A stretch of 64,000 bases of DNA. Source: Myxococcota bacterium. Its GTDB lineage: Bacteria; Myxococcota_A; UBA9042. This document shows, in pieces, positions 29,880 to 55,675 of the stretch (positions are counted from its first letter, which is position 1; every line of letters starts with the position of its first letter). A model generated the notes under the pieces. That model ran no database searches, was not told where the DNA came from, and saw only the letters and a list, made by a program, of their open reading frames with translations. Both the position numbers and the translations under genes were made by a program. Location of the stretch: positions 31,825 through 95,824 of the forward strand of contig JBMOIG010000003.1 of assembly GCA_049317445.1 (NCBI GenBank), given 5' to 3'.

Positions 29880-30977
29880 TCAGTCATCTTCGGGGTCGGC
29901 ATCGTCGGCCATGCCCGCCTCGGCAAACCACGACCTGACCCGCGAGGACAGCTTCTTCGACTTCTCCTGAAACGCTGCTTCACTGACCCGCAGCGCCTCC
30001 TCGAAGCCCTGGGCGATCGCCGCGTCCAACGCGCTCAGCAACAGCTGCCGACTTTCGCCTCCGCCTGAGTGCGCGCGCACCCAAGTCCGCAGCGCGATCA
30101 GGTCCGTCACCCCGCCCAGCCCCCGCGCAAGGGCTGCCAACGCGTCGATGCCGTCTCGCTGCGCGTGCGGCGCCACCGAGGCGATCAGCTCGAGCTGCCA
30201 GCGCACGTCCTTGACCCGCTTGCGAAACTCATGGATCAGCTTGGGATTGGGACGCTTCTCGGCCGCATGACGCGCCTTCTTGGCCCGCTTCCAGGCGTCG
30301 CGCAACCCGCGGGCCAGCTGCCTCCAGCGAATCTCAGGCTCCAGCTGCGCCGCAAACGTCTCGGCGACCGGCTGCAGATCGACCGCGCCTGCGCGCAGCA
30401 GCCCGCCGGAGGTGCCCGCGGCGTGGGCCTTGAGCCGCCCCTGATCGAGCTCGATGCGCCAGACGTCGAGGGCTTCCCGGTCCGCCACCACCACCGTGCT
30501 CAGCGTGTCGGGCAGGATCTCGGCATCGCGCAGGGCAGACGTGCGCCGCGCCACGTCGCGCACCGCGTGGTCCAGATCGCGCCAAGTCTCGTGGGGCAGC
30601 GCCCGCTCAACCAAGTGCAGCGTCGAACGAATGCGGCGCAGGGAGCGGCGGAAGGCGTGGATCGCGTGCGCTGGGTCTTCTGTCGCGCTCCGGGCCGCAA
30701 GGTGCAGCCGCGCGACCTGCGCGGTCACGTGGTCCGTCAAGGTGTCGTGCAAGCCATCCAGAACCGATGGCTCCGCAGCTTCCGCCGGCGCGGCGACTTC
30801 GGGTGCGGGTGTCGGCAACGGCGAGTCCGTCTGCGCTTCTACTACCGCATCGACGGGCGCTTCCGACGCTTCCAAGCCGGGAAGGGTCGCTTTGCCACGG
30901 GCTTGGGCAGTTCGCGGGGCACGGATCCGGGTGCGCGGACGCGGAGACACCTCGGGCGGGGTCGGGTCGGACGGCAT
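29880..30977 (-). CDS. CHAD-domain protein (polyphosphate-associated)
   Basis: HEFRKRVKDVRWQLELI and IHAFRRSLRRIRSTLHLV are the hallmark conserved His/Arg helices of CHAD. The protein is 365 aa. Confidence 0.65.
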   Translation of the reverse strand: MPSDPTPPEVSPRPRTRIRAPRTAQARGKATLPGLEASEAPVDAVVEAQTDSPLPTPAPEVAAPAEAAEPSVLDGLHDTLTDHVTAQVARLHLAARSATEDPAHAIHAFRRSLRRIRSTLHLVERALPHETWRDLDHAVRDVARRTSALRDAEILPDTLSTVVVADREALDVWRIELDQGRLKAHAAGTSGGLLRAGAVDLQPVAETFAAQLEPEIRWRQLARGLRDAWKRAKKARHAAEKRPNPKLIHEFRKRVKDVRWQLELIASVAPHAQRDGIDALAALARGLGGVTDLIALRTWVRAHSGGGESRQLLLSALDAAIAQGFEEALRVSEAAFQEKSKKLSSRVRSWFAEAGMADDADPEDD

Positions 30978-31124
30978 GCGGGCTCCTCAGCAGACAACGG
31001 TCACAGTATAGGGCAACCGCGGCGGCGTGCGACCCCGGTTGGCAACGGTTGCGTGAGGGACGGGCATCTGCCAACCTCCGCCGCCCGACCCCAAGCCGGG
31101 TTCGCCCGCAACAGGAGGAGACCC

Positions 31125-31622
31125 ATGCGCGTCTACATCATGCGCCATGGCATCGCAGTGGATCGCGACGACGCGGAATACCCCGAAGACGCCGACCGTC
31201 CGCTGACCGTTGAAGGTGCGCAGCGCACCCGGCGAGCCTTGCAGGGGCTGGCCGACATGGGCGTCGGCATCGACCGAATTGCGACCAGCCCCCTGCGGCG
31301 GTCTGTGCAAACTTCTGAACTTGCCTCGGAAGTGTTCGGGCTGACGGCCGACTTGGCGATTCGGCCCGAGTTCGCCCCGGCCGCAGGCAACGCCGCACGG
31401 TGGCTCGAGAGCTGCCGAGCCCTCAAGGTCGATGACGTTTTGTGCATCGGCCACTCGCCCGAGGTCGACGACTGGATCGCCCACGCGGTCGGTGCCCCGC
31501 AGCGGCTGACCTCGCTGAAGAAGGCGGGCATTGCCGTGATCTCGATCGATGACGACCCTACCGGCCGCTTGGTCGCGTTGTACGAGCCCAAGGTCCTTCG
31601 CCGGATCGGGTGGACGGCCTGA
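31125..31622 (+). CDS. sixA: phosphohistidine phosphatase SixA
   Basis: ATG at 31125 follows the RBS aggaggag. MRVYIMRHGIAVDRDD carries the RHG catalytic motif, and ...LCIGHSPEV is a histidine phosphatase branch-1 feature. The protein is 165 aa. Confidence 0.75.
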   Translation: MRVYIMRHGIAVDRDDAEYPEDADRPLTVEGAQRTRRALQGLADMGVGIDRIATSPLRRSVQTSELASEVFGLTADLAIRPEFAPAAGNAARWLESCRALKVDDVLCIGHSPEVDDWIAHAVGAPQRLTSLKKAGIAVISIDDDPTGRLVALYEPKVLRRIGWTA

Positions 31623-31647
31623 TTTCTCTTGATGTACAGGGTCTTGA

Positions 31648-32442
31648 CTAGTCCTGATCGCGGACCACCTGCACCACCGCCAAGTCGTCCAAGCGCACGG
31701 CAGTCAGCTCACGCCCCCAAACGCACCCCGTGTCCACCGCCACGAGTCCGGGCTGTATCAGCAGTCCCAAGGCGGCCCAGTGGCCGAACACCACCGTCAC
31801 GTCCCGATTGCGGCGACCCGGCACCGCGAACCAAGGCAGGCAGCCGCGCGGAGCCTTGTCGGGAGCACCGCTGAACGACGAAATCGCCTCGCCCTGCGCC
31901 GTGCACCCGCGCAACCGGGTCAGTGCCGCCACCGTCGCGCCGGCCTCGCGCAACGCCTCGTCCGTCAGGGGTTCCTTGCGCTTATGAATGGCCAGCAGCT
32001 CGGTGCGGCGCGGACCCCGGAGCCAGGCCTCCGCCGCTCGCGCGCGGGTTTCCGCCACCGTCACGGTCCACTGCGGCAGCAGCCCAGCGTGCACCAGCAG
32101 CCAGTCGCCGTCGCGGTGCAGCAGCGGGCGGTGTACCAGCCAGTCGAGCAGCTCGTCGCGGTCGGGTGCCGCAAGGACCTCGTCCAGCGTGTCGCCCGGC
32201 TTCAGGGGCACCAGCCCGTACGCCGCGGACAACAGGTGCAGATCGTGGTTGCCCAGCACGGTCTGCGCGGCATTTCCCAACGCCTTGATCTGCCTGAGCA
32301 CTTCCAAGGATTGCGGTCCGCGGTTGACCAGGTCGCCCACGAACCACACCTGATCTGCGGCCGGGTCGAAGCGGATCCGGTCGAGCAAGCGCTCGAGCTC
32401 GTCGGCACACCCCTGCACGTCACCGATCGCCCAGATCGCCAC
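31648..32442 (-). CDS. apaH: bis(5'-nucleosyl)-tetraphosphatase (symmetrical) ApaH
   Basis: AIWAIGDVQGCADEL, GDLVNRGP, GNHDLHLL, the GHW motif and DTGCVWG are typical ApaH metallophosphatase motifs. A GTG start at 32442 is inferred and the longer ORF N-terminus is rejected. Confidence 0.8.
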   Translation of the reverse strand: MAIWAIGDVQGCADELERLLDRIRFDPAADQVWFVGDLVNRGPQSLEVLRQIKALGNAAQTVLGNHDLHLLSAAYGLVPLKPGDTLDEVLAAPDRDELLDWLVHRPLLHRDGDWLLVHAGLLPQWTVTVAETRARAAEAWLRGPRRTELLAIHKRKEPLTDEALREAGATVAALTRLRGCTAQGEAISSFSGAPDKAPRGCLPWFAVPGRRNRDVTVVFGHWAALGLLIQPGLVAVDTGCVWGRELTAVRLDDLAVVQVVRDQD

Positions 32443-32655
32443 GATGAACCCCTGCCTTTCCAAGCCGCTGCTGTAGTCGGCGCGTTCTCGACCGCGCTGC
32501 AACCGTGTAGCATCGCGATCCTCGCACCGGGACGCCCAGCGCGCGAGAAAACGGCCGCAGTGGGCGCGCCCTTGACCCTTTCGTCGTGAGAGCAGCCCAT
32601 GCCCCCCCGCACCGACTCGCCCAGCGCCCGACGCCGCCCCCGTGGCCTGGCGCAT

Positions 32656-34203
32656 ATGTCCGCGCCGCTGCTACCGATCGAAGGGCTTGCCGAGTCACTT
32701 GAGCCGCCGGAAATCATCGCCGCCATCGATCTCGGGTCGAACAGTTTCCACCTCGTGACCGCCCGCGTGGTGCAGGGCGGGCTAATCGTCATCGCCAAGA
32801 TGCGCGATACGGTGCGACTTGCCGCAGGGCTGGACGACCACGACCGATTGCACGGCGACAGCGAGGCGCGGGCGCTTGCCTGTCTGGAGCGATTTGGTCA
32901 ACTGGTGCGCGAGATGCCGCGACGGGGGGTGCGTGCGGTTGGAACGAGCACGTTGCGAAGGGCGACCAACTCTGCGGACTTCCTGGCCAAGGCCCGCAAC
33001 GCCCTGGGGCACCCCATCGAGATCGTGTCCGGACGCGAGGAAGCCCGCCTGATCTACCTGGGCTTGACCCACAGTGTGGCCAGCGTACCGGGGCGGCGTC
33101 TGGTGATCGACATCGGCGGCGCCAGTACCGAGTGCATTCTGGGCGAGCGCTTCGAGCCGCTGCTGGCCGACAGTCTGGACATGGGCTGCGTGACCTGGAT
33201 GCGCCACTTTCCCAAGGGAGAGATCCGCAAGGACGGCTTCAGGCAAGCGGAGTTGGCGGCCAGTCGGCAGCTGGAGCCCCTGCGCCGCGGCTACACAACG
33301 CTGGGGTGGGATGCGTGTGCGGGCGGCTCAGGGACGATTGGGGCCACGCAAGCGATCCTGCGGGCGCTGGAGGGCCACCGAGGCGGCATCACCCGCGATG
33401 GTCTGGAGCGGCTGAAGAAGGAGTTGCTGGCGTTCGGCCACATCAAGCACATCCAACTGCCTGATTTACGGTCTGATCGAGCCGAGGTCCTGCCCGCCGG
33501 TGTCGCCATCCTGACGGCTGTGTTCGATGCGTTCGGCATCGAGCAGATGGAGGCGGCGTCCGGCGCACTGCGCGAAGGCGTGCTGCACGACCTGCTGGGT
33601 CGTATTCGCCACGACGACGTCCGCGACCGCACGGTCTCGCGACTGGCAGAGCGGTACCACGTCGACGCTGAGCAAGCTGCGCGCGTCGAACGGACGGTTC
33701 GCCTGCTGCAAAGGAAGGTCGCGGATTCCTGGAAGATCGACGACGTGGCCGCACGGCAGGCGCTGACTTGGGCAGCACGGCTGCACGAGATCGGCCTGAT
33801 GGTGGCGTTCTCGGGCTACCACCGCCACGGCGCGTATCTGGTCGCCAATGCCGACATGCCGGGCTTCTCACGCGACGACCAGGAGCTTGTGGCCAGCCTG
33901 ATCCGCGTGCATCGTCGCAAGCTGGCCCTCGGCAAGGAAGCGGCCAAGCCGTCCGAGACCGTGATCCGCATGGCCGTGCTGCTGCGGCTGGCTGTGCTGC
34001 TCAACCGCGCCCGCAGCCACAAGCCCCTGCCGCCGTTCGGGATCGAGGCCGTGGGTGACAAGGTGGTGCTGTCGTTCCCGGCCGACTGGCTGGCGGACCA
34101 ACCGCTGACGGCCGCCGATCTTGCGCAAGAGGCGCTGGATCTGAAGGACGCAGGCATCGCGCTCGAAGTCACCCGGTCGCGTACCCGACCCGCCGCCGGG
34201 TAG
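32656..34203 (+). CDS. ppx: exopolyphosphatase Ppx/GppA
   Basis: IAAIDLGSNSFHLVTARV, LVIDIGGASTE and the C-terminal HD-like domain match Ppx/GppA. ATG at 32656. Confidence 0.85.
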   Translation: MSAPLLPIEGLAESLEPPEIIAAIDLGSNSFHLVTARVVQGGLIVIAKMRDTVRLAAGLDDHDRLHGDSEARALACLERFGQLVREMPRRGVRAVGTSTLRRATNSADFLAKARNALGHPIEIVSGREEARLIYLGLTHSVASVPGRRLVIDIGGASTECILGERFEPLLADSLDMGCVTWMRHFPKGEIRKDGFRQAELAASRQLEPLRRGYTTLGWDACAGGSGTIGATQAILRALEGHRGGITRDGLERLKKELLAFGHIKHIQLPDLRSDRAEVLPAGVAILTAVFDAFGIEQMEAASGALREGVLHDLLGRIRHDDVRDRTVSRLAERYHVDAEQAARVERTVRLLQRKVADSWKIDDVAARQALTWAARLHEIGLMVAFSGYHRHGAYLVANADMPGFSRDDQELVASLIRVHRRKLALGKEAAKPSETVIRMAVLLRLAVLLNRARSHKPLPPFGIEAVGDKVVLSFPADWLADQPLTAADLAQEALDLKDAGIALEVTRSRTRPAAG

Positions 34204-34206
34204 CTC

Positions 34207-36261
34207 CTACTCGCCGGCCGTGGCCAGAAACGCCTGCACGGAAAATTTCCCCGTTCGCGAGCCGAGATAGGATCCGTCGGGCTGCATGTCCCACGCCTGC
34301 ATGTCGTCCTGCCACGGCAGGGTGAGACACTCGCGCACCGCCCGGTCGGCCAACTGAGGGTCGTACAAGGGAAAGCACACCTCGACGCGGCGGGTGAAGT
34401 TGCGCTCCATCCAGTCGGCGCTGCCCGCCCACACCTGACGGTCGTCGTCGGGGCCAAAGACATAGACCCGTGCGTGCTCCAGAAAGCGTCCCACCAGCGA
34501 GCGCACGCGAATCCGCTCGGACAGCCCGGGCACGCCCGGCCGCAAGCAGCAAATGCCGCGCACGACCAGCTCCACGTCCACGCCCGCTTGCGACGCCCGA
34601 TACAGTGCCGCGATGACCTTGGGGTCCGTCAGTGCGTTCATCTTGGCGCGGATCTGCGCCGGCTTGCCCTTGCGCGCCCGCTGCGCCTGAGCATCGATGC
34701 GGGTGATCATCTGGTCCTGCAGACCGAGCGGCGCCTGCAGAAGGCGCTTCAGCTCTCGCACTGCGCCCAGACCGGTCAGCTGCTGCAACAGGTGGTGGGC
34801 GTCGCGAGTCAGCCCCGGGTCGGCCGTCAGCAAGCCCAAGTCCGTGTACTGTCTGGAGTTCTGCGGGTGGTAGTTGCCGGTGCCCAGGTGCAGGTACCGC
34901 CGCAGCTCCCCGCCCTCCTGCCGCGCGACCAGCAAGAGCTTGGCGTGGACCTTGTGGCCGACGACCCCGTGGATCACGTGCACGCCTGCATCGTGCATGC
35001 GCTGCGCCAGGTCGATGTTGGCCTCTTCGTCGAAGCGGGCACGCAGCTCGACGACCGCGGTCACCTCCTTGCCCGCCCGTGCCGCTTGGCACAGCGCGTC
35101 GACGTAGGGTGAGGTCGCCCCCGTGCGGTACAGCGTCTGGTGGATGGCGCGTACCTGCGGGTCCGCCACGGCGCGGCGCAAGAAGTCCAGCACGATACCC
35201 GCAGAGTCGTACGGATGGTGCAGCAGGACGTCGCCCCGCCGCAGCGTCTCGAACACATCGACGTCGGCCGTGTCCAGTCCGCCTTGGTCGGCGCGGGGAA
35301 CATGGGGCGGGTGACGCAGGTCGGGCCGTTCTGCAAGGTCGCACAAGGCGGACAGTTGATGCAGATTCACGGGGCCTGGAACGCGGTACAGGTCCGCTTG
35401 CACCAAGCCGAATTGCCCCAGCAGCAGCGGCTCGATGGCCTCGGGACAGTCTGCGGGGACCTCCAGCCGCACCGCGTCGCCGTCGTTGCGGTGGTGCAGC
35501 TCGCCTTGCAGTGCCTCCAGCAGGTCCTCGGCCTCTTCCTCGATCAGCCAGAGTTCGCTGTCTCGGGTGACGCGGAAGGGCGCGCAAGCCTTGACCTCTC
35601 GGCCGGGGAAGACCTCACCGATGCACGCCACGACCACGTCGGACAGCAAGACGAACGCGCAAGCATCCGACGGCAGCGCCATCACACGAGGCAACGACCG
35701 CGGGACCTGCACGACAGCAAGCCCCTGAGAACCGGTGCGCGGGTCGGATTCCCGCAGCAAGACCAAGACCGCCAGATGCTTGTTCTGCACGTGCGGAAAG
35801 GTCCCTGCGGCGTCTACACCGGTTGGCGACAAGAGCGGCAGCACCAGCGACCGGAACAGTGCGCGCACCTCAGCCTGCTGTTGCGCCGTCCAGCGGGCGG
35901 GCGACAGCAGCCGTATGCCGGCGACCTCGAGAGCGGGCAGCAATTCCTCCACAAGCACGCGGTGTTGTTCGGCGACCAGCGCGTGGGCCTCTGTCATCGT
36001 CCGCGCCAGACTCTCGGCCGCCGTCAGACCGTCTGGACCCGGTGCCTTCAGTCCGAAGGCGACGCGCTGGCGCAGTCGGGCGACGCGAACCTCGAAGAAT
36101 TCGTCCAGATTGGAGCTGCTGATGGTCAGAAACCGCAGGCGCTCCAGCAGCGGCACCGAGGGGTCACGAGCCAGCGCCAACACCCGATGCTGGAACGCGA
36201 TCAGGGCGGACTCGCGGTTCAGGTAGGTGCCGGGCGCGAGCAACGGCGCAGAACGGGCCAT
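34207..36261 (-). CDS. ppk: polyphosphate kinase 1
   Basis: 684 aa, starting MARSAPLLAPGTYLNRESALIAFQHRVLALA. FLTISSSNLDEFFEVRVA is the PPK1 N-domain motif. It is convergent with ppx. Confidence 0.9.
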   Translation of the reverse strand: MARSAPLLAPGTYLNRESALIAFQHRVLALARDPSVPLLERLRFLTISSSNLDEFFEVRVARLRQRVAFGLKAPGPDGLTAAESLARTMTEAHALVAEQHRVLVEELLPALEVAGIRLLSPARWTAQQQAEVRALFRSLVLPLLSPTGVDAAGTFPHVQNKHLAVLVLLRESDPRTGSQGLAVVQVPRSLPRVMALPSDACAFVLLSDVVVACIGEVFPGREVKACAPFRVTRDSELWLIEEEAEDLLEALQGELHHRNDGDAVRLEVPADCPEAIEPLLLGQFGLVQADLYRVPGPVNLHQLSALCDLAERPDLRHPPHVPRADQGGLDTADVDVFETLRRGDVLLHHPYDSAGIVLDFLRRAVADPQVRAIHQTLYRTGATSPYVDALCQAARAGKEVTAVVELRARFDEEANIDLAQRMHDAGVHVIHGVVGHKVHAKLLLVARQEGGELRRYLHLGTGNYHPQNSRQYTDLGLLTADPGLTRDAHHLLQQLTGLGAVRELKRLLQAPLGLQDQMITRIDAQAQRARKGKPAQIRAKMNALTDPKVIAALYRASQAGVDVELVVRGICCLRPGVPGLSERIRVRSLVGRFLEHARVYVFGPDDDRQVWAGSADWMERNFTRRVEVCFPLYDPQLADRAVRECLTLPWQDDMQAWDMQPDGSYLGSRTGKFSVQAFLATAGE

Positions 36262-36295: not shown

Positions 36296-37024
36296 CTACT
36301 TGTTCAGCTTGGCGACTTCCTCGACCAGATTGGTCGGGCGCTCCATCGGCGCTTCACCCGGAGGCGGTGACAGCCACTGCGCCGGCATGGGAATCGGTGT
36401 CGGCGCCCAGTCGGCACCAGGCAGGTCGTCGGGGTGGGTGCCATCGACGATGAACTTCTGGCGCGGACCGTCGAACACCGACGTCGCCTCTTGACCAAAG
36501 CGGTATTCCCAAGGGTCTTCCAACACCAAGCGGCGCGTGCTCTCGCGCAGACGGCGCACATACGCCACCGACCAGATCTCGGCCAGCTGGGGCTCCGGGA
36601 TGTGGGCGTTGCGGACCTCGTCCAGCTCGACACCAAAGCTGCCACCCAGGCCGGCCTCACGCCGAAACGGCAGCGGGTCGTCCAGATCCACCGCCATCTC
36701 GTAGCGACCGATGTTGCGCAGGGTGTACTGCGGCATGTGCTCGTGCTGGATGGCTTCCAAAACGTCGCCGGGCAACTCGTTGTCGGTCTTGGGGCGAATC
36801 GGGCGAGCGTACGTCTCTTCGAACTTGGAGCGCCCTTGTACCGTCTCGCTCAGCCGGTCGGCGCGAAAGTCGTGGGGGACGAACACGGCGAAGGCGTCGA
36901 TGCGGCTCAGCTGGTCGTGCAGAGGCAGGCGCCGGGTCGAGAACCGCTGCCGCCCAACAATTCGGCCAGAAAGCGGCCACGCCATCGGCACTTGCAGCAG
37001 GTCTCGGCCGCACGCCTCGTCCAT
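36296..37024 (-). CDS. hypothetical protein, last gene of the AAA+/DUF1257/DUF2997 cassette
   Basis: 242 aa with no recognisable motif. Its start is 3 bp after the DUF2997 stop, and its stop is 34 bp before the ppk start. Confidence 0.4.
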   Translation of the reverse strand: MDEACGRDLLQVPMAWPLSGRIVGRQRFSTRRLPLHDQLSRIDAFAVFVPHDFRADRLSETVQGRSKFEETYARPIRPKTDNELPGDVLEAIQHEHMPQYTLRNIGRYEMAVDLDDPLPFRREAGLGGSFGVELDEVRNAHIPEPQLAEIWSVAYVRRLRESTRRLVLEDPWEYRFGQEATSVFDGPRQKFIVDGTHPDDLPGADWAPTPIPMPAQWLSPPPGEAPMERPTNLVEEVAKLNK

Positions 37025-37027
37025 CGC

Positions 37028-37240
37028 CTAGCCTTCGCTGCCGTCGCCAGTCGCAACCTTCTCGGTCACCACCGACTCCTGGTAGTACTCGCTGGTGTGC
37101 TGGCGGGTCGACACGACGCCCAGCGCCAGCTCGATCTCGCGGGTCAGGCGCTCGCACTCCGGCCCCTTGAGGCCCACCACCTTGATCGAGACTTCCCCGT
37201 TGTCATCGATGGTGAATTCGATCTCACGACGCGTGGCCAT
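37028..37240 (-). CDS. DUF2997-like small protein
   Basis: 70 aa, MATRREIEFTIDDNGEVSIKVVGLKGPECERLTREIELALG. This fits the DUF2997 pattern EIEF.I..DG.V...V.G.KG..C..LT..IE.ALG. Confidence 0.55.
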   Translation of the reverse strand: MATRREIEFTIDDNGEVSIKVVGLKGPECERLTREIELALGVVSTRQHTSEYYQESVVTEKVATGDGSEG

Positions 37241-37249
37241 TCTTGCCTC

Positions 37250-37660
37250 CTACTCGCTCCAAGAGGCCACCTTCAGGTGGATGTGGTTCTCTTCGTCCAC
37301 CTTCTCTTCCTCGAGCGTGTACCCCCGCTTCTGCACCTCTTCCTTGACGGTGTGGTAGGCGTAGCGCTGGTTGATGCGACGCGTGAACTCGTCCTGATTG
37401 AAACCGGCCGTCATCTCGACGAATTCCCAGTCGGCCACGAACGTGACCAGGCCGGTCTCCGCGTTGACGTTGACACCGATGTCGTACGTCTTCGACGCGT
37501 GGATGACCATCTGTGCCTGCGTCTTCTGCCCCAGATAGCCCTTGACGTGCACCAGCTGCTCGGCTTGGGCGCGCGTATAGGCGAACCCCAGCTCTTTCAA
37601 CACGAGCTCCAGGCGCATCAGGTTCTGGATCTTGGTCTGGACCGTCGTGAAGTGCGACAT
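37250..37660 (-). CDS. DUF1257-like protein
   Basis: 136 aa. The N-terminus MSHFTTVQTKIQNLMRLELVLKELGF matches the conserved MSHF(S/T)T(I/V) start of DUF1257 family members. Confidence 0.55.
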   Translation of the reverse strand: MSHFTTVQTKIQNLMRLELVLKELGFAYTRAQAEQLVHVKGYLGQKTQAQMVIHASKTYDIGVNVNAETGLVTFVADWEFVEMTAGFNQDEFTRRINQRYAYHTVKEEVQKRGYTLEEEKVDEENHIHLKVASWSE

Positions 37661-37675
37661 GCAGGGCTCCTCGCG

Positions 37676-39337
37676 TCACATTTCCAGACGGGGGGCGTCG
37701 TTGTCGGTCATGGGGGCATCGTCGGCAGGCGAGGCGCGCCGGGCGCGTGACTTCGACCACTCGCGCATCTCCGACAGTCGCTCGCGCATCGTCTGGCTCA
37801 GCGGAATGACCTCGCGGATGGCGAGCAGCAGGCTCTCGGTCGTGATGTCGGTCTTGCCCAGTCCCTCGTCGTAGGCATCGTACATCGACGTCACGATGAT
37901 CTCCTCGAGCTCCGAACCAGAGTAGCCGGCCGTCGCGTCCGTCAGCTTCTTCAAGTCGAAGTGCGCGGGGTCGCGGTGACGCCTGCGGAGGTGGATCTCG
38001 AAGATCGCCTGTCGTTCCTCACGGTTGGGCAGATCGACGAAGAAGATCTCGTCGAAGCGGCCCTTGCGCAGCAGCTCAGGCGGCAGCATCGACACGTCGT
38101 TGGCGGTCGCAATCACGAACACGGGCGAGGTCTTCTCCTGCAGCCAGGTCAAGAACGTCGCGAACACGCGCGCCGTCGTGCCACCGTCCGACTGGCCAGA
38201 GCTCTTGGTCCCCGAGAAGCCCTTCTCCAGCTCGTCCAGCCAAAGGATCGCAGGTGCCACGGCTTCCGCCGTCTTGATCGCGCGGCGCATGTTCTCCTCG
38301 GACGAGCCGACCAGCGAACCAAACACCTTGCCCACGTCCAACCGCAGCAGCGGCATCTGCCACGACTGCGAGATCGCCTTTGCTGACAATGACTTGCCGC
38401 AACCCGGCACGCCCAGCAGCAGGATACCCTTGGGCGGCGGCAGACCGAATTCCTGCGCGGCGGGGGTGAACGCGTTGCGACGCTTGTTCAGCCACTCCTT
38501 CAGGTTGTTCAGACCGCCGACTTCCTGCATGCCCAGCGAGCTCTCGTAGAACTCCAGAATGCCGCTCTTGCGGATGATGTGCTTCTTCTCGGCGAGGATC
38601 GTCTTGAGGTTGAAGCACTTGTCGCGCACTGTGGACTTGGCGAACACCTGACGTGCCTCAGACTCCGTCAGTCCCAGCGCGGCCTCGGCCACCTCGCGCT
38701 GCAGCTCCGGGCTCTCCAGCACCTTGGCGAAGTTCTTGCCGAATCGCTGCGAGCGGGCGCCGTGGAACGCGCTGTCGCGCACGATGTCTTCCAGCGTCTG
38801 GCGGTCCGGCAAGTCGAAATCGACGACGACCAGGTCCTTCTCCAGCTCGAGCGGGATCTTGACCATCGGCGACAAGAACACCACGCAGCGCTTGGCTTGC
38901 GTCGAATCTGCAAACAGTCCGGGCAGATCGCGCACGCGACGGGCCACCATCGGGTCGTTGAAGAACGGGTGGAAGTCGCGCAGAACCACCACGGCGTCGC
39001 GGGTCAGGTTGTTCGCAACCCAGTCGAGCGCGCGGATCGGATCGCGGATGTCGCCGGGCACGTCGGCGGTGTCGCAGCGAAAGCCCTGTGAACACGACCA
39101 CTTGATCAGCTGTCGCGGTTGCCAGTTCGTGACGTCCCAACGCTCTCGCAGCGGCGGACTGTCCAGCACGGCGAGGTCGCGCATCCACCTCTCGACCCGG
39201 TCTTCTTCGGCCGACACGACGTAGATCAGCTTGTACTGGGCGCGGATCAGGTAGTGCAGCTCATCGACGGCGCTGGGCACCGGTCGGTTGGGCGAGGCAG
39301 CAGCGGCTTCGGCAATCGGCGACACGGTCTGGGTCAT
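37676..39337 (-). CDS. AAA+ ATPase (classic AAA, CDC48/FtsH-type module with long N-terminal domain)
   Basis: Walker [15 protein letters not shown], Walker [10 protein letters not shown], the [26 protein letters not shown] and sensor 2 are all present. The start at 39337 (MTQTVSP) is preferred. The alternative at 39439 would overlap the FHA gene by 26 bp. Confidence 0.75.
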
Positions 39338-39413
39338 GACCGGCTTCTCCTGCGGCACGATGGCGACTCGGTCAGGCGCGTTCGGCCCGTCCGTACCGCC
39401 GTTCAGTTCCACG

Positions 39414-41351
39414 TCACGGGATAACGTCGCCAGGACCATCAGCGCCCAGGTCGTGCCTGAGACCGACGACCATGCGCTCCTGCTCGATCAGGTCCTGCGC
39501 CAGCACGATCGCGATGTCGTTCATCATGTCGATCGCCTCGCCGGTCTCGGACTTCTGCCCCACGCCCGACTTCTCGAGCTGCTGGGCGTACCGGCGCACC
39601 AGAATCGCGTTCGACTTCGATGCCGCCACGGCGTCGACCAGCGCTTCGAATGCCTCGACCGTCTGCGGCGATACGCTGGCCTTGACTTCGGTCGTCGCCA
39701 ACACCTTCAGCTGGTCCTCGGACTCGCGCAGCTGCGCCTCCAACGACTCGATCTTCTTGAGATGCAGCGCCAGCTCGGCTTCCAGCTTCTTGCCATGGCT
39801 GCTGTCTGCCTGAACGGCTTCGAGCTTCAGCTCGGACTTCGCCAGGTCGCGCTGCAGCGTGCTCAGCTCTTCGCGCAGGCGCTCCGTCTCTCGGACCTTG
39901 GCCTTGAAGTCCGGGTGCTCGCTCACATCGACCAACGGCGCGGGCTTGCGCTCGGTCGCCTCGCGGCTCGCCTCGACCTCTGCCCGCAGGCCGTCGATCT
40001 GGCGGCTCTGCTGCAACAAGCGGTCGTTCAGCTCATCCACGCGGCGGGTGGCGGCGTGGTAGTCCTCGAGCAGGCGGCGCTTCTCGTGTTCGAGGTCGCT
40101 GATGCCGACGCCCATGCGGACCTGTCGGATCTCGATGTCCTTGTCGCGCAGGTCGATCCGCAGCTGCTCGATCAGCGATTCCTTTTCCTGAATCACTTCT
40201 TGCAGCAGGTTGATCTTGCGCTCCAGCCGATCGACGTCGCCGCCTTCGCGGTTGAACGAGGTCTGCAACGACTCGTTCTCGTCACGTGCCGCCCGCAGCT
40301 CGTACTCCAGCAGGTCCAGCTGCCGTTGCAACTCTTCGATCTGCCTATCTTTTTGCGTCAGACGCACCTTCAGGCCGCTCAACTGCTCGGTGGCCTCGGT
40401 CGCCTTCTCGCGCGCTGACCCGATCTGCTGCTCCAGCTCGGTCACGCGACGCTCAGCCTCGAAGGCATCGTCCTCGCGCTGCCGCAGCTCCCGGCGGGTC
40501 TCTTCCAGCGACCGGGTGATGACCTGATTCTGCTCCTTGAGCTTGACGTACTTGTCAGAAATACCTTCAAGTTCAACCGCATAGCGCATCGCTCGCGGCT
40601 CGCTCTCTTTGGCTTCCTTCTCTGCACGAGTTGCCCGGGCCTCGGCGTCGGCCAGCGCCTGTTCCAACGCCCGGACCTTGCGACGCAGCTCGGTCATCTC
40701 CGCGGCGTCGGCGACTGGAGCTCCTTGTCCGGTCGGATTGCGGGCGGGAACGACGGCGTCGCGCTGGCCGGTCTGCACGGTCGACCGAGGCGCTGCGGGC
40801 CGCGACTCGCCGCCGACCAGCTCTGCGGGCACCGGGGGAGCGCGGCGGGCGGTCGAAACGCCGGCTGCTTGAGCGGGAGGCGGCGCCGGCACGACGGCGG
40901 GCGACGAGCCAGAGGTCGAGGCGGACTGCGGAGCCTGCCGCGCCGCCACCGCAGCGGCGAGTCGAACGCTGTCGTCAGGGCGTAACCCGCTGGTCGGCAT
41001 GGCCTTCTGAGCCGGAGGCCGTGGCCGTTCCTCGCTGGCGCTACGGGAATCGCCGATCTCGCCTGACTTGGCGTGGATCTCCAGCACCTCGCCGCAGCGG
41101 ACGACGTCGCCCTCGCGGATGACCGCCCGTCGGGTGCGCTCGCCGTTGATGAAGGTGCCGTTCGACGATCCCAAGTCCTTGATGTAGTAGCCTTCTTCGT
41201 CCCAGCCGATGCGGCCGTGGTTGCGCGAGACGGTACTTTCCTTGGAGTAGACGCTTGACCCGGGGTTGCGCCCGATGGTGATCGGCTCGATGTCGGGCCG
41301 CAGCGGCAACTGCACGAGATTGCCGGTCACGTCGCGATACTCGAGGTACAT
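39414..41351 (-). CDS. FHA-domain protein with long coiled-coil
   Basis: The N-terminal FHA is ITIGRNPGSSVYSKESTVSRNHGRIGWDEEGYYIKDLGSSNGTFINGERT. About 400 aa of heptad-rich E/R/L/Q coiled coil follow. The internal start MYLEYRDV is taken. Confidence 0.7.
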   Translation of the reverse strand: MYLEYRDVTGNLVQLPLRPDIEPITIGRNPGSSVYSKESTVSRNHGRIGWDEEGYYIKDLGSSNGTFINGERTRRAVIREGDVVRCGEVLEIHAKSGEIGDSRSASEERPRPPAQKAMPTSGLRPDDSVRLAAAVAARQAPQSASTSGSSPAVVPAPPPAQAAGVSTARRAPPVPAELVGGESRPAAPRSTVQTGQRDAVVPARNPTGQGAPVADAAEMTELRRKVRALEQALADAEARATRAEKEAKESEPRAMRYAVELEGISDKYVKLKEQNQVITRSLEETRRELRQREDDAFEAERRVTELEQQIGSAREKATEATEQLSGLKVRLTQKDRQIEELQRQLDLLEYELRAARDENESLQTSFNREGGDVDRLERKINLLQEVIQEKESLIEQLRIDLRDKDIEIRQVRMGVGISDLEHEKRRLLEDYHAATRRVDELNDRLLQQSRQIDGLRAEVEASREATERKPAPLVDVSEHPDFKAKVRETERLREELSTLQRDLAKSELKLEAVQADSSHGKKLEAELALHLKKIESLEAQLRESEDQLKVLATTEVKASVSPQTVEAFEALVDAVAASKSNAILVRRYAQQLEKSGVGQKSETGEAIDMMNDIAIVLAQDLIEQERMVVGLRHDLGADGPGDVIP

Positions 41352-41551
41352 GGGATCGCGCCTCCAAGCGTACGGCAACCCGGCTCGCGAAACGGCGGCA
41401 AGTGGCGCCACTTCGGCACGGACAGACCACGACGCAGGGGGTCGATTCTAGTCTGAGCAGAGGCGTAGCGGCAAGGGGAACGGGACGCCGGACAACCGCC
41501 CAAGCGCGGGGAGTCGGTGACTTTTCCCGATCGCGCTGCGTCCAGATCGCG

Positions 41552-42355
41552 TCAGCGCCCCGGGCGCCGCAGCAGCTTGAGCCGCTGTGCCGCGCGTTGG
41601 CCCAGCTCGGTCCCCGGCCAAGTGCGCGCCAGCTGGTCCAGCACTTCCGCGGCCCCCTTGTCGTCGCCCAGCTGCAGGTACGTCAGCCCCAACTTGTAGA
41701 GAGCGTCGGGAACCTTGTTCCCTCTGGGATACGTCTGCGCGACTCTCAGGAAGGTCTGCGCCGCCGCCAGCCACTGCGACTGCGCATACCAGCTCTCGCC
41801 GACCCAATACAACGCGTTGTCGGCAAGCTCGTGCCGTCCATGCCGCAACACCATCTCGTCGAACAGCGCGCGTGCGGCGTCGTGCTGCCCTTGGTCCAGC
41901 AGCGCCTTGGCCTCTGCGTAAAGTGCCACCGCGGGATCTGCTTGCGACTTGCGGACTTCCTGCGGAGCTGGCTCTCCCGCAGGTCCCGATGCAACCACGA
42001 CCGGCTTGGCGACGGCAGGGACAGCTGCTGCTGCCCGAGTCTTGCCGTGGTGCCCGGCTCTTCCGGCGGGCTGCACGCGCACGGTCGGCACCGCGGGCAT
42101 CCAGGCGTCGTCGCGCCGGGCCCGCGCCACGCGCTCGGCGTCCACCTGCTCCTCGACCATCACCAGACGGTCGCGGACCTCAGCAAACTGCAGCCGCTCC
42201 GCCGCTCGGTTGCGCTTCATTTCGACGATCTCGCCGCGGACCTCACCCAGCTCGGTCTCCAGCTGCGTGACCCTGGCACCAGAGCAACCGGACATCGCCG
42301 CGGCTGCTCCGAGGATCCCCAGCAGGATCGAGAGGTTGAATGAGAACCGGTCCAC
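41552..42355 (-). CDS. TPR-repeat periplasmic protein, YbgF/CpoB-like
   Basis: An N-terminal signal is followed by an MSGCSG lipobox-like segment and a coiled-coil. The C-terminal TPRs are ALYAEAKALLDQGQHDAARALFDEMV...NALYWVGESWYAQSQW...ALYKLGLTYLQLGD. Confidence 0.55.
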   Translation of the reverse strand: MDRFSFNLSILLGILGAAAAMSGCSGARVTQLETELGEVRGEIVEMKRNRAAERLQFAEVRDRLVMVEEQVDAERVARARRDDAWMPAVPTVRVQPAGRAGHHGKTRAAAAVPAVAKPVVVASGPAGEPAPQEVRKSQADPAVALYAEAKALLDQGQHDAARALFDEMVLRHGRHELADNALYWVGESWYAQSQWLAAAQTFLRVAQTYPRGNKVPDALYKLGLTYLQLGDDKGAAEVLDQLARTWPGTELGQRAAQRLKLLRRPGR

Positions 42356-42433: not shown

Positions 42434-42805
42434 TCAAGAATTCCGCGACACGCCGCGTCGCAATCGCCCCCAGCCGACCCTGAGCGCGGGTGCGACGCGG
42501 GCCCATGCCAGACCGGCCGATCGCACCGCTGCCCCGGAGAGACCTGACGCGGGCACCGGCAACGTGACGGCGCCCAAGCGCAACTGCGCGACTCGCCCCA
42601 GCACGGCCGAAGCGGCGACCGGCGTGTCGGCCGTCGCACGCGTGTCGCCTCGGGTCTGAAGCACGCCCTGCCCCAAGGACGCGACGCGATGGACCCACAC
42701 CTCACCCGGCCGAACCCCCAGCGTGGCCACAAGGTCCCCGCGCCGCAGGTCCTCAAAAGGCACGCGCACAACCCCCGCCTGCCACGGCGCGGCCAGCGGC
42801 CACAT
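42434..42805 (-). CDS. S26 signal-peptidase-like serine protease (candidate leader peptidase)
   Basis: SGRSMWPLA resembles the GDSMxPTL catalytic Ser box. RRGDLVATLG and HRVASLGQGVLQTRGDTRATADTP resemble the KRVIGLPGD and GDNRxxSxDSR boxes. The internal start at 42805 is assumed, because the 176-aa ORF would overlap the rSAM gene. Confidence 0.45.
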   Translation of the reverse strand: MWPLAAPWQAGVVRVPFEDLRRGDLVATLGVRPGEVWVHRVASLGQGVLQTRGDTRATADTPVAASAVLGRVAQLRLGAVTLPVPASGLSGAAVRSAGLAWARVAPALRVGWGRLRRGVSRNS

Positions 42806-42840
42806 CGACCGTCCCGACAGGGTGTACCAGTCGATGCGGG

Positions 42841-44040
42841 TCACTTCGCCCCTCCCGACGGTTCCTTGACGCGACGCCCGCCGCCTCGCTGCGCGCGGTG
42901 GATGGGAAAGACGAACTGGTCGGGGGGGGGGCCGTCCTCGCCGCCTTCGGGAACGGTAGCCCATTCTTCTGCGGTGAAGGGGGGGCTTCCGGTCGCTTCG
43001 AAAGCCAAGAGTCGGGCGCGCGTCTCAGCGTGAAAGGAGTCCGGGGCCTTGCGGAAGTCCCCACTGCGCTTGAAGGCTTCACCGGGGCAATAGAAGCACA
43101 CGGAATTGCCGACGCAGGAGAGACAGCTGGAACGGTCCTTGTTCGTCCACGCGAGGATCTCCCGACGGATGGGCGAGTTGCGCCAGATATCGCCGAACGT
43201 CTGCTCGCGCACGTTGCCCAGCGCCATGGGCCAGGTCACGCAGGGCCACACGCTGCCGTCCGGAGCAATGTAGGCAGCCGTCCGCCCCGCCCCGCAAGTG
43301 TTTTGGTCCTCAAGGTCCTGCATCCGCGGTGGAGGCTGCGGCCCCGTGAGGCCGAGCAACTGCCTCATCGACGTCCTCACCCTCACGAGATCAGCTTCGC
43401 TTAACTGAAGCGTGTCCAGGGTGCTTGTGGCCGAATGGTCGCGACGGATCGTTCCGTTGAGAGTCACCTCACACCCGTCCGCGGCGAACCGGGCGTACAA
43501 TTCCTCCATCTCGTCCAACGTGTTCGCCTGCACGGTCATCGAGACGCGCACCGCCAAGCCCGCCTGACGCAGCAACTGGATCCCTTCCAGCGTTCGCAGG
43601 AGTGCCCCTGGGCGGCGCACAAAGGCGTCGTGAATCTCCGGCCGCAGCGAGTAGACGCTGACGTCGACTCGCGACGTGCGACTTCGCGCCAGCAGAGCCA
43701 CCCGCTCTTGCGTCAGGTTGCCAGCGTGCGTCTTGACCCGATTGACAAACCCGAGACTGGCCGCGAGCTCCAAGGCCTCATCCACATCCGGACGGAGAAA
43801 CAACTCCCCGCCGCTCCAAGTGAGGATCAGGACTCCGGCGTCGCGAAGCTGATGCAGCAGGCCCCGAAGCTCGTCAGGCTTCATCTCGGGCCAGTGCTTG
43901 TCGTCCAGATAGCAGTGCACGCAGTCGAGGTCGCAGCGATACGTGACGTCCAAGTGGGCGTGCAGCGGCATGTCGGCACGCCGATAGGCCCGAACCAACG
44001 CTTGGTCCGCGCCTCCTGAGTCGTCGAGCAGGTCAGCCAT
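42841..44040 (-). CDS. radical SAM / SPASM-domain peptide-modifying enzyme
   Basis: The CX3CX2C motif is LDVTYRCDLDCVHCY. The SPASM twin-Cys region is CGAGRTAAYIAPDGSVWPC...CLSCVGNSVCFYCPGE. The ATG overlaps the upstream gene stop as an ATGGCTGA coupling. Confidence 0.8.
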   Translation of the reverse strand: MADLLDDSGGADQALVRAYRRADMPLHAHLDVTYRCDLDCVHCYLDDKHWPEMKPDELRGLLHQLRDAGVLILTWSGGELFLRPDVDEALELAASLGFVNRVKTHAGNLTQERVALLARSRTSRVDVSVYSLRPEIHDAFVRRPGALLRTLEGIQLLRQAGLAVRVSMTVQANTLDEMEELYARFAADGCEVTLNGTIRRDHSATSTLDTLQLSEADLVRVRTSMRQLLGLTGPQPPPRMQDLEDQNTCGAGRTAAYIAPDGSVWPCVTWPMALGNVREQTFGDIWRNSPIRREILAWTNKDRSSCLSCVGNSVCFYCPGEAFKRSGDFRKAPDSFHAETRARLLAFEATGSPPFTAEEWATVPEGGEDGPPPDQFVFPIHRAQRGGGRRVKEPSGGAK

Positions 44041-45102: not shown

Positions 45103-48100
45103 TCAGTACACCAGAACCAAGACACCTGGCGTCGTGACGCTGCCCACCGTGGTGTCGGCCGAACCCACAAGCATGTCAGGACGACCGTCGCCGTTGAAGT
45201 CTCCGATGCCGACGACGGAGGTGCTGACCATGGCCTTCGTGCCGACTCCCCAGCCGAGCGAGCCTGGAGCAAACGGGTTGCCGAAGACAATGTCGTCAAA
45301 TGCGTAGCCGCCCGCTCCCTGAAGCGCGGGGACCTGCATGGCATACCGGACGGTCAACAGCGCCGTGTTGGTGGGTCCGTAGGCCGGCGACCCGTTCACG
45401 ATGTCGGTCAGACCGTCGGGATGGTCACCAAACGTCCCAAGCGAGGACAGGCCTTGGACCCACGCCCGTACGGCTCCGCCCAGAGGATGGGTGCCAAGCG
45501 CCGGAGCGTTCGCAACCGGCGTCAGCGCCATGGAAACGCGTTTTCCGACATAGGAGGCAAGCTTCGACCCGCAGATCCAGTAGATCGCGCCGACGGTCCC
45601 AGAGACCTGATGGCGGACGACCAAGTCGCTGAGGGCGTCGCCATCGATGTTGGCCGCGTCCATCGCCGTGCCGCACGCGTTGATGCCCACATTGGAGTCG
45701 CACAGAACCCGAACCGTCGACCCGTCGTCGGGCGCGGTGCCGAGTTGATCGCGCGTCAGCAGCACTTCGACGTCGCCGCTGAACGTCCGGCCGGGCACGA
45801 TGTGGACCTGCTGGGGCGTGGCGTACTGCGAGATTGCGAGGTCGTCGAACTGCGGCCCCTGGCCCCCGTTGTCCGGGAGCACGTTGCTGAGTCCTACCAG
45901 TGAGTAACCAAACAGCACGTTGCCGACGCTATCCGTCAGGTGGATCGTCATGATGTTGTTGGCGGCGCGGTCGGCCGGGAGGTTGCCGTCGATGATGACC
46001 TGCTTGTCCGTAGTCCAAGCGGAGTTGCCCGGGATCACGAACACCCGGTCATACAGAACGCTTCCGTACGTAGCTGACGTGACGACGATCTCAGCGGTCG
46101 GCAGGCCAGTGACGGGGTGCAAGTCTCCGTTGAAGCTGCGAATCGTGGTCAGCGCGCGGACACCCCACGCCGGCACGGATGCGATGCCTCTGAAGATGAC
46201 CTGCGGTTGAGCCGAGATCAGCTGCTTGTCACGGCCCAAGTACACGCGCACCTCGCGGGTGAACCCGGCACCCTGACCAGCTCCAATGACCAAGTCGTCG
46301 ATGCCGTCGCCGTTGACGTCGCCCGGCTGCAGCGCAGTGTTGCCGGCAAGTCCGAGCCCCGTACCCGGCAGGCAGACGTGATGCGTGCCGACTTGGCTGT
46401 CGAACGTCACTTCGGCGAGTGAACCGTCGGCGGCTGAGGGTCGGCCGTAGACCACGCAGGCGTCGAGGTCGATGCCGCCGCCCACGACAAAGTCGGACAG
46501 ACCGTCACCGTTCAGGTCGCCTGCCGCATACACGCGGTTGCGATACTCAGCGGTCTGGTACTTCGGGTCTGCCGTCGTGACCTTGACGTAGTGCAAACGC
46601 AGCGCGTCGGTCGAAAGGGCCGTCGAGACGTCCGAGTGATTGCCCGCAGCATCCACCGCGCGAATCGCGAAGTAATACTTGGAGATCCCACCGTCGGTCA
46701 GCGGGGCGAACTTGCAGAGGTCGCTGGCAGAACGCGGGTCCGGGCCTGAGATCTCGACTTGCTGCGTGACGCCCGCCTGAGCCGGAACGGGCAGTTGCAC
46801 ACCCGGAATGGCCTTGGCCTCGCAAGCCGCTTCGAACTCGGCAACGGTCGTGATCGCTTTGCGCGAGTACCGCACATCGTAGGCGGCTGCCGTCCCCGTC
46901 ATCCCATCGTCGCCAACGGCGGTGAAAGAAACGCGAGCGAGCGGACGCCGCGGGTTCAGGTCGCCGCTGGCGAACGGGTCCAGAACGACCTTGGCCGGGG
47001 CCTTCCAATCGACCTTGATGGTAACCGTGGCGACGGCCGTATTGCCCAAGGCATCGGCAACCTTCGCCGTGATCGTGTTGCTGGCATCCTCAGTGAGCGT
47101 CGCGAATTGAACCGGGACTTGGTCGGCCGCCGAATCGAACGTCAACGGCAGCTTCACCAAGTCCTGCGGCAGGTCGCCTGTGCTCTGGCCCACCGTGCGC
47201 TTGAGCTCGAGCAGCTCGCCACCCGCCAGACCGGCATCCTTGGCCTCGATCAGCAGGTGCAGCTGGTGGTTGGGCGTAGCGACCGACTGGTCGTCAGGCT
47301 GACCATACAGCGCGGTCGGTCCCGCCGGCGTGTCGAAGCCGAGCACTTGGCCCGCGATGAACGACACCGTGGGATTGGTCAGGTCGGCCTTGACGGTCAC
47401 CGCACCGCTGGAACCCTTGACCGCCGCGCCTTCCAGCGCGACGACCTCGGCCGAGAACGTATCACCATCCTTGACCTCCAAGGCAAAGGACGCCTTGGCG
47501 TTCACCGGAGCGGCCGACGCAACCGCGCTGCCATTCTTGCGCAGTTCGATCTTGTCAGGGGTGCCGCACGGACCGACAAACTCCGCGGTCACGGTCGGCT
47601 TCACGCTGGCGCAGTTCTGTCCAGGAGTCGGGCACGCCTGCGTGTTCAGGCCGCCGATAGGCAGCCCCTTGACCAACACAAGGCAGCCGCTGAGTTGAAC
47701 GTCGAAGCCTCGAGTGGCCACCGTCTTGTTGCCGTTGACGTCCACGCCGGTCAAGCGCAGCACGTAATGCGGCGTGGCGCCAAACGGGATCGTGACATCG
47801 ACCTTGGGCTCGACACCGTTCGGGTTCAGCACCTTGCCGCTGCCAACCTTCTCGTAGCCGGCGCAGTTGAGGAAGCTGGAATCGCAGTCGTCGCCCAATT
47901 CAAGCGTCCACGAGTCGGTGTCGACCGTGCCAAACAGGACGGAGACCTGATAGCCGGAAAGGGCGGGCGCGGCGTCGTCATTGTCGGTGAACGTCGCTCC
48001 CGGGCTCGGGGTCTGAATGCCGAGCTGCGGCGGCTCAGTATCGACCGTGATCTTTGCCGGACTGGTTGCGATGGTCGAGATGTTGCCGCAGACGTCGCGC

Positions 48101-55391: not shown

Positions 55392-55675
55392 GCCTCTCCG
55401 TCGGGGCGTGGGCACCCTGAAGTGGGGGCCTGTAGGGGTCGGACACAGTATAGCGTATTTGGTGGCGGGCGCATTCCCGGCCGGCCCGTCCGCACCGGCA
55501 ACCACCCGGCCGACCTGCGGTCCGACACAACCGGACGCTTGTCGCTCGCGCCGTCCTCGGTCCACAATGGCGCGCGTTGCAGGCGGGTGAGGGAAGGAGT
55601 AGACACCGCCAGACTCTGCGCACGCCCAAGCGAAGCGCAAAGCTGTGGATTCCACCTGAGCTGCACGGGAGGCAC

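Follow-up and report, generated by a model that had tools for sequence, protein, structure and literature searches.

A Ycf46-type AAA+ ATPase with DUF1257 and DUF2997 partners in a conserved five-gene operon of Myxococcota, a candidate protein-remodelling system

In cyanobacteria and algal plastids, ycf46 and ycf35 have, to our knowledge, stood for decades as conserved open reading frames (ORFs) without a known function. Here we describe an operon with members of both families in a stretch of 64,000 nucleotides (hereafter, the window) from a freshwater Myxococcota bacterium (NCBI GenBank assembly GCA_049317445.1, contig JBMOIG010000003.1, positions 31,825 to 95,824). The unit consists of five genes: an FHA/coiled-coil gene, a Ycf46-type AAA+ ATPase gene, a DUF1257 (Ycf35-family) gene, a DUF2997 gene, and the gene of a 242-residue protein designated X242. 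One of the three genes of a cyanobacterial operon is ycf46 (slr0374, Synpcc7942_0417); stress strongly induces this operon in an RpaB- and (p)ppGpp-dependent manner (bioRxiv 10.1101/2025.07.21.665879; PMC7496141), and there are reports that connect ycf46 with CO2 use and with KaiC. DUF2997, ycf35, and fed7, the last encoding a 4Fe-4S ferredoxin, form a conserved cyanobacterial cluster (PMC4284462), and similar habitat-linked retention and loss of ycf46 and ycf35 were reported for 127 red-algal plastid genomes (PMC5940233). Our literature search, in which only five papers mentioned either DUF, found no paper that describes the trio of AAA, DUF1257, and DUF2997 as a system. An earlier interpretation made from the DNA letters (hereafter, the sequence-only reading) had proposed a previously undescribed system, and this is correct in part: what is new is the five-gene version of myxobacteria together with the orphan X242 family, but the ATPase family is known, and the NCBI annotation of the metagenome-assembled genome (MAG) of the window already gives the names DUF1257 and DUF2997 to the two small genes.

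The positions of the genes are listed in Table 1. The sequence-only reading had recognised four tightly packed genes on the minus strand, and the ORFs and the gaps of 15, 9, 3, and 34 bp (in the order of ATPase/DUF1257/DUF2997/X242/ppk1) were as it gave them; what it had missed was the fifth member, the FHA gene directly upstream. It had also placed the ATPase start at 39439. The ATG at that position falls inside the upstream FHA gene, the relatives of the ATPase are 550-556 residues long, and the NCBI model of the window protein (MFZ4576997.1) has 553 residues; thus, the start was assigned to the Met codon at 39337, which leaves approximately 262 N-terminal residues ahead of the linker into the AAA core. 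The coding signature (GC content at the third codon position, 0.82-0.90, in a GC-rich genome) was present in the ATPase, DUF1257, and X242 genes; the DUF2997 ORF was outside this scoring because the minimum length in the script was 80 residues. One sigma-70-like site was found between 33500 and 44500 (0.4 expected), in the gap of 140-200 bp 5' of the FHA gene, and this is a weak candidate for the operon promoter, being a consensus match alone in a 67% GC genome. In the same region, no intrinsic-terminator-like site was detected, versus approximately 5 expected from shuffled sequences, and the 64-kb window contained no Rfam family at gathering scores, no tRNA gene, and no regulatory RNA.

Table 1. 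Positions of the operon genes, their parts, and the surrounding genes in the window
Feature	Position	Strand	Remarks
FHA/coiled-coil gene	39414-41411	-	665-aa ORF; likely start Met at ~41351; first gene of the unit
FHA domain	~41091-41282	-	PF00498; residues 44-107 of the 665-aa ORF
Ycf46-type AAA+ ATPase gene	37676-39337	-	553 aa; longest ORF (587 aa) reaches 39439
ATPase D1, predicted degenerate AAA	38552-39337	-	Residues 1-262; ends in family-specific linker
ATPase D2, predicted catalytic AAA, lid, and conserved C-terminal tail	37676-38551	-	PF00004 core, 38033-38425
DUF1257 (Ycf35-family) gene	37250-37660	-	136 aa; begins MSHFTTV; PF06868
DUF2997 gene	37028-37240	-	70 aa; PF11211
X242 gene	36296-37024	-	242 aa; scored as coding by GC content at third codon position
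Candidate operon promoter, sigma-70-like	41445-41474	-	TTGCCG-18-TAGAAT; 9/12 matches
ppk1	34207-36261	-	All four PPK domains
ppx/gppA	After ppk1, within 30069-36261	+	Polyphosphate block
Calcineurin-like metallophosphoesterase	31648-32655	-	Polyphosphate block
Histidine-phosphatase-domain protein (His_Phos_1)	30069-31622	+	Polyphosphate block
TPR/YfiO-like protein	41552-42355		Upstream of FHA gene
Small ORF	42434-42964		Upstream of FHA gene
Radical SAM/SPASM enzyme	42841-44040		Upstream of FHA gene
2370-aa ORF with FG-GAP and bacterial Ig-like repeats	45103-52215	-	Probably a surface or adhesion protein
RseP-like M50/PDZ protease	53532-55829		

To examine the conservation of the unit, GTDB genomes, one for each species, were scanned with an alignment of the ATPase N-domain as the query. 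At least 415 relatives were obtained, and the best 80 of them were used for a census with ORF prediction and phmmer, contig ends being allowed for. All the 80 loci were from Myxococcota-type genomes, Myxococcales, Polyangia, Haliangiales, and Bradymonadales among them. DUF1257 and DUF2997 were directly 3' of the ATPase gene on the same strand in 72 of the 74 loci, the FHA gene was directly 5' of it in 70 of the 72, and a relative of X242 was adjacent in 43 of the 67 (50 of the 67 when any place in the locus was counted). The two exceptions for the DUF pair were both Bradymonadales; in one the pair is 1.7 kb off on the opposite strand, and in the other the contig ends too soon. X242 was missing mainly from Polyangia-type loci. 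An overlap of 4 bp between the FHA and AAA ORFs was seen at several loci (L018 and L020-L027), and the contexts of four X242 homologues were all FHA/coiled-coil, AAA, DUF1257, DUF2997, and X242. Among the Myxococcota loci examined, the operon was thus nearly universal, syntenic, and well conserved. Its context there is of a vertical, housekeeping-like kind: the upstream genes are syntenic, and in the window the GC content is normal and the neighbours are housekeeping genes. Six loci (L007, L010, L012, L020, L028, and L029) came from public MAGs that bear the title 'uncultured Enterobacteriaceae' or that of 'Klebsiella pneumoniae', which showed 67-100% identity to the ATPase N-domain of the window and are almost certainly mislabelled. 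One locus was in a Spirochaetes-labelled bin.

The trio also recurs, with other partners, in Cyanobacteriota, Bacillota, Actinomycetota, and Nitrospirota. Altogether 39 plasmid records, which represent several phyla, contained full-length ATPase homologues, and the gene orders that we read, partly on chromosomes and with the whole trio or most of it, were as follows: Paenibacillus polymyxa plasmid, DsbA-AAA-DUF1257-DUF2997-Fer4_12; Ca. Manganitrophus plasmid, AAA-hypothetical-DUF1257-DUF2997; Paenarthrobacter plasmid, AAA-hypothetical-DUF2997-hypothetical-Fer4_12; Planktothrix plasmid, AAA-ASCH-hypothetical-DUF2997-DUF1257; B. thuringiensis plasmid, Fer4_12-(weak DUF1257)-HhH-AAA-DUF2997; Pseudanabaena plasmid, GrpE-Hsp70-DUF1257-AAA_21 ATPase-hypothetical-DUF2997-AAA-WD40; Geminocystis plasmid, DUF1257-DUF2997...AAA; Synechocystis PCC 7338 chromosome, GrpE-Hsp70-DUF1257-DUF2997-AAA; and a 1.3-Mb contig (L095), AAA-WD40-WD40/HEAT-GrpE-Hsp70-DUF1257-DUF2997-Fer4_12. 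The Geminocystis ATPase is 74-76% identical to proteins of Chloroflexota, Verrucomicrobiota, Nitrospirota, and Planctomycetota, and such identity across distant phyla indicates horizontal spread of the GrpE-Hsp70-WD40/HEAT variant (L087, L091, and L093-L096). Some copies of this variant are disrupted by transposases, next to a zeta toxin gene. The Fer4_12 proteins are small radical-SAM enzymes and relatives of NrdG-like glycyl-radical activases, with scores just under the NrdG cut-off; their gene adjoins the ATPase gene in five unrelated contexts (L089, L090, L095, L097, and L098; also L064), four of which have DUF1257 and/or DUF2997, while the Treponema context has neither of them adjacent. 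Neither the window nor the Myxococcota loci examined contained an NrdG-like gene. The C-terminal tail of the NrdG-like proteins (E.eI.I.PDG.v...G) was considered as a DUF2997-like hairpin and rejected; all five tails fell on the same profile positions, but the scores of -2 to 4 bits were not significant.

As for phages, the ATPase occurs at full length in mycobacteriophages and some other phages. Gp97 of Mycobacterium phage Catdawg (L005), which has counterparts in approximately 34 related phages, is 32% identical to it at 92% coverage, and no DUF1257 or DUF2997 gene was found near gp97. The DUF2997-DUF1257 pair is present in Prochlorococcus phages; in cyanophage P-SSM2 (L006), genes 178-180 encode DUF2997, DUF1257, and DUF6561 between the carbamoyltransferase and DNA polymerase genes, with no ATPase gene nearby. 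Thus, co-occurrence of the trio in phages was rejected, as the ATPase and the DUF pair are in different phages. Taken over all loci, DUF1257 and DUF2997 are constant genomic partners of the ATPase across at least five phyla, and the other partners differ from lineage to lineage (FHA/coiled-coil and X242 in Myxococcota, GrpE-Hsp70-WD40/HEAT elsewhere, and the NrdG-like protein on many plasmids). With the counts for Myxococcota, this neighbourhood survey bears out the proposal of the sequence-only reading that the genes form a genuine, co-conserved system.

The ATPase matched PF00004 of Pfam with E=2.9e-29 (102.6 bits; cut-off, 21.2) and phrog_8638 of PHROGs over its full length (residues 52-574; E=5.7e-140). 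Its sequence places it in the widespread group labelled 'SpoVK/Ycf46/Vps4' by public sources, a family that is known though uncharacterised; the Geminocystis protein is approximately 40% identical to the window ATPase across 91% of the length, and with 'hypothetical protein YCF46 [Stanieria]' it shares 79% identity. In its architecture, the protein is a two-tier classical AAA+ ATPase: D1 is degenerate, and D2, the predicted catalytic tier, carries the motifs Walker A (GVPGCGKS) and Walker B (ILWLDELEK) as well as arginine fingers (region LLRKGRFDE). When D2 was compared with PDB by sequence, it matched best with D2 of VAT and of p97 (E, about 1e-57 to 1e-54). The sequence-only reading had noted an N-terminal region of approximately 250 residues; such a region (262 residues) exists, but it is itself a degenerate AAA domain according to the predicted model (predicted local distance difference test (pLDDT), 93.9; predicted template modelling score (pTM), 0.87; alignment of 87 sequences), which has a classical AAA fold. 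No solved relative of this region was detected by sequence. In the alignment, the Walker A P-loop is absent from D1, and D1 is presumed to be structural or substrate-binding because of this loss. The linker that joins D1 to D2 (EKKxIIRxS..LEF) is kept in all 65 aligned members. Pore loop 1 (window 38270-38290) reads SLVG, with Leu or Ile in most of the family in place of the classical aromatic residue, while Catdawg gp97 keeps an aromatic pore loop (KYVG).

The assignments of the two small proteins were confirmed with the Pfam hidden Markov models: DUF1257 matched PF06868 with E=6.2e-21 (75 bits; cut-off, 22.2), and DUF2997 matched PF11211 with E=1.3e-16 (60.6 bits; cut-off, 24.1; model positions 1-47 of 47). 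In the alignment of the DUF1257 family, the N-terminal MSHFT is near-invariant, and the motifs V.GY.GQ, YDIG, ADWW, and QRYAYH are conserved; the 'MSH' N-terminus is reported to be universal in plastid Ycf35 (PMC13060386). The DUF2997 protein consists of a conserved domain of 47 residues, in which one Cys is strongly conserved, and a variable C-terminal tail that is probably flexible. The consensus is I...G.V...V.G..G..C...T..lE.aLG.v..r..TseyY, and the window protein reads EIEFTIDDNGEVSIKVVGLKGPEC, to which the motif quoted in the sequence-only reading was close but slightly off. Neither DUF1257 nor DUF2997 had a solved or annotated relative. Two candidate folds for DUF1257 were rejected. An S4-like RNA-binding domain was considered from a near-threshold Pfam match (22.3 bits versus 22.8) with uS4 matches in PDB; the S4 match occurred in one of the 27 members, namely, the protein of the window, and was regarded as chance. 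A bacterial microcompartment (BMC) shell-like domain was considered from a profile match against PDB (E=0.12), and no member matched the Pfam BMC model.

X242, in which the sequence-only reading had recognised no motif, had no match in Pfam, NCBIfam, PADLOC, or PHROGs. Conserved motifs in its alignment are PQFTLRNIGRYE, LEDPWE, and EGTHPDD. A word-indexed search gave 53 clusters, and a profile search gave 73 representatives among 1.84 billion sequences; X242 is thus a small orphan family, and no relative was found outside Myxococcota in the loci tested. A fold search for X242 was discarded because the AlphaFold2 model was too poor to use. The FHA protein matched PF00498 with E=4.7e-17, with tropomyosin-like coiled-coil matches besides, and the canonical phosphothreonine-binding residues GR...SRNH...NG are readable in its sequence. 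The FHA gene is the most informative of the lineage-specific partners.

On balance, and with slightly better than even confidence, we favour the reading that the five-gene operon encodes a regulated machine for protein remodelling (unfolding or disassembly), the mechanism being inferred. The ATPase hexamer would pull on or remodel client proteins, and DUF1257 and DUF2997 would be obligate adaptors, regulators, or dedicated clients, with input or targeting left to the variable partners. In Myxococcota, a phosphothreonine mark set by Ser/Thr kinases would be read by the FHA domain, the coiled coil would scaffold the complex, and X242 may be a clade-specific client or adaptor. The physiological role is likely proteostasis under stress or growth arrest. 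The DnaK-ClpB bi-chaperone arrangement is established, and the logic of a chaperone is suggested because Hsp70 and GrpE beside the AAA+ protein in the other variant parallel it. A chaperone or unfoldase-adaptor set was one of the proposals of the sequence-only reading; the two-tier ATPase with constant small partners agrees with it, and the adaptor role is the part that is inferred only. Since the module is in non-photosynthetic phyla as well as in Cyanobacteriota, its core function would be general protein remodelling, not specific to photosynthesis.

Several points weigh against protein remodelling. No relative of known function was detected for DUF1257, DUF2997, or X242 in the sequence and profile searches, and the hexamer, the partner contacts, and any substrate are putative. 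With an aliphatic pore loop 1, processive threading is not assured. The AlphaFold2 model of X242 was poor (pLDDT, 51.5; pTM, 0.16). The recurrent NrdG-like enzyme in other phyla is unexplained by a pure chaperone model, and the distribution on plasmids and in phages, together with the ATPase identity of approximately 75% across phyla, fits a conflict system equally well. In addition, slr0376 encodes 116 residues and was classed as cyanobacteria-specific (PMC2823733), which speaks against a typical 70-residue DUF2997; the papers on the slr0373-slr0374-slr0376 operon give no domain assignment, and we did not equate the cassette with that operon.

A wider version, which we regard as doubtful, would make the trio the core of a very widespread but so far undescribed adaptor-and-unfoldase machine of the rank of Cdc48 with its cofactors or Mpa-Pup, in which DUF2997 and DUF1257 would mark or deliver clients and the lineage-specific inputs (FHA, Hsp70/GrpE/WD40, or NrdG-like) would time its firing. 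If this is true, the plastid ORFs ycf46 and ycf35 would obtain a function.

An anti-phage or other conflict system, with FHA, WD40, or HEAT as the sensor, the AAA+ protein for thresholding or remodelling, and a small or orphan protein as the effector, appears unlikely. It would account for the presence of the ATPase or the trio on plasmids and near phage-like, toxin-antitoxin, RloB/AAA_21 ATPase, DUF4007, and transposase genes, for the phage copies of the ATPase and of the DUF pair, and for the horizontal transfer implied by the cross-phylum identity; the AAA core resembles those of IetA and TRIP13, and chaperone-based thresholding is an established theme in conflict systems (PMC7159879). However, PADLOC gave nothing for DUF2997 or X242 and a non-significant E=0.036 for DUF1257, and the ATPase matched it in the generic AAA core only (IetA and TRIP13 models); together with the housekeeping neighbours, this does not sustain the defence module that had been suggested for the cassette. 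No recognisable toxin or nuclease domain is in the unit, and the near-universal, syntenic Myxococcota operon with its normal GC content is unlike a defence island. Persistence of ycf46 and ycf35 in plastid genomes also argues against a conflict role, and Kaur et al. (2020), who surveyed conflict systems based on chaperones and covered MoxR-vWA and GTPase/Hsp70 systems, do not include the AAA/DUF1257/DUF2997 trio.

It is rather improbable that the module serves redox, Fe-S, or radical enzymes, i.e., that the AAA+ protein is an 'activase' (comparable with Rubisco activase, CbbX, or NorQ) and, together with DUF1257 and DUF2997, carries out the maturation, repair, or regulation of such an enzyme. 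The five contexts with the NrdG-like gene point in this direction, as do the 4Fe-4S ferredoxin of the DUF2997-Ycf35-Fed7 cluster (PMC4284462), the conserved Cys of DUF2997, the radical SAM/SPASM gene that is syntenic upstream in the clade of the window, and the habitat-linked distribution that ycf46 and ycf35 share with ycf34 and pbsA in red algae (PMC5940233). Nevertheless, the NrdG-like gene is missing from the window and all Myxococcota loci; the upstream SPASM enzyme is of another subfamily, is split from the operon by the TPR (and LysM) genes, and occurs so in close relatives only; a lone Cys cannot bind a cluster by itself; and no candidate target enzyme was identified. As for the upstream region itself, the set of SPASM, small ORF, and TPR genes is syntenic in at least 11 close relatives, and a LysM gene lies between the TPR and FHA genes in relatives, the window being without it.

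On the other side of the operon, ppk1 follows X242 on the same strand at 34 bp, and ppx/gppA, the metallophosphoesterase gene, and the histidine phosphatase gene come after it. The ppk1 adjacency was also found in three relatives (L003, L010, and L011), the first of which has a CHAD protein in addition to the polyphosphate genes of the window. A substrate of Ppx/GppA enzymes is pppGpp. The (p)ppGpp-dependent expression of cyanobacterial ycf46 (bioRxiv 10.1101/2025.07.21.665879) could likewise be taken to favour regulation linked to polyphosphate through ppk1 and ppx. Such regulation, which the sequence-only reading had raised from the position of the cassette beside ppk1, is very improbable, because ppk1 was present in only 4 of the 58 informative loci and the trio-ppk link in none of the non-myxobacterial loci, and because other relatives have genes for an AMP-binding enzyme, an ABC ATPase, or hypothetical proteins where ppk1 would stand (among the four X242 contexts above, ppk1 and ppx follow X242 once). 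In one locus (L009), the metallophosphoesterase gene directly follows X242 without ppk1 or ppx, which indicates a local rearrangement beside a separate polyphosphate block. The position of ppk1 beside the operon is thus incidental, and a tempting but unsupported polyphosphate link is removed from the annotation.

To return to protein remodelling, the ycf46, ycf35, and DUF2997 families form one genomically linked module, including in the non-photosynthetic Myxococcota, Bacillota, Actinomycetota, and Nitrospirota. This gives testable hypotheses, namely, complex formation, control by FHA and phosphothreonine, and cooperation with Hsp70, and leaves the recurrent NrdG-like partner as an unexplained lead.

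Finally, the locus was compared with the known systems. The AAA+ remodellers with small partners in IetAS and in TRIP13-HORMA of the cyclic-oligonucleotide-based antiphage signalling system (CBASS) resemble it, the PADLOC IetA and TRIP13 models matching the AAA core. However, the NCBIfam IteA model gave 78 bits versus a cut-off of 510, no IetS-like protease partner was seen, the TRIP13 core match was weak (E=1e-6), and no HORMA protein or cyclase is in the locus. The DUF2997-Ycf35-Fed7 cluster and P-SSM2 genes 178-180 have the same adjacent DUF2997/DUF1257 pair, but no ATPase gene is beside it and the third gene is Fed7 or DUF6561, not X242. The non-myxobacterial variant is like DnaK-GrpE-ClpB in its functional logic and in that genes for a dedicated Hsp70 and GrpE adjoin the AAA+ gene; it differs in that the ATPase is outside the Clp/Hsp100 clade and no J-domain protein was seen in those loci, and the version of the window has neither Hsp70 nor GrpE. 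In comparison with Cdc48/p97/VAT and Pex1/Pex6, the window ATPase has no double-psi-barrel N domain or known cofactor-binding motif, no P-loop in D1, an aliphatic pore loop, and only approximately 550 residues; on the other hand, its D2 is closest to the D2 of VAT and p97, its D1 has a classical AAA fold in the predicted model, and one catalytically dead tier is also a feature of Pex6 and FtsHi. The closest likeness is to Ycf46. The gene order and partners of the cyanobacterial ycf46 operon differ from those of the window, and the readable cyanobacterial loci have the trio with GrpE, Hsp70, and WD40, not with FHA and X242; since Myxococcota are not phototrophs, the roles in CO2 use and the circadian clock are not directly transferable. 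Nevertheless, the two ATPases are of the same family by public labels, both have the degenerate D1, the EKKxIIRxS..LEF linker, and the AAA D2, and small co-transcribed genes flank the cyanobacterial gene as well.

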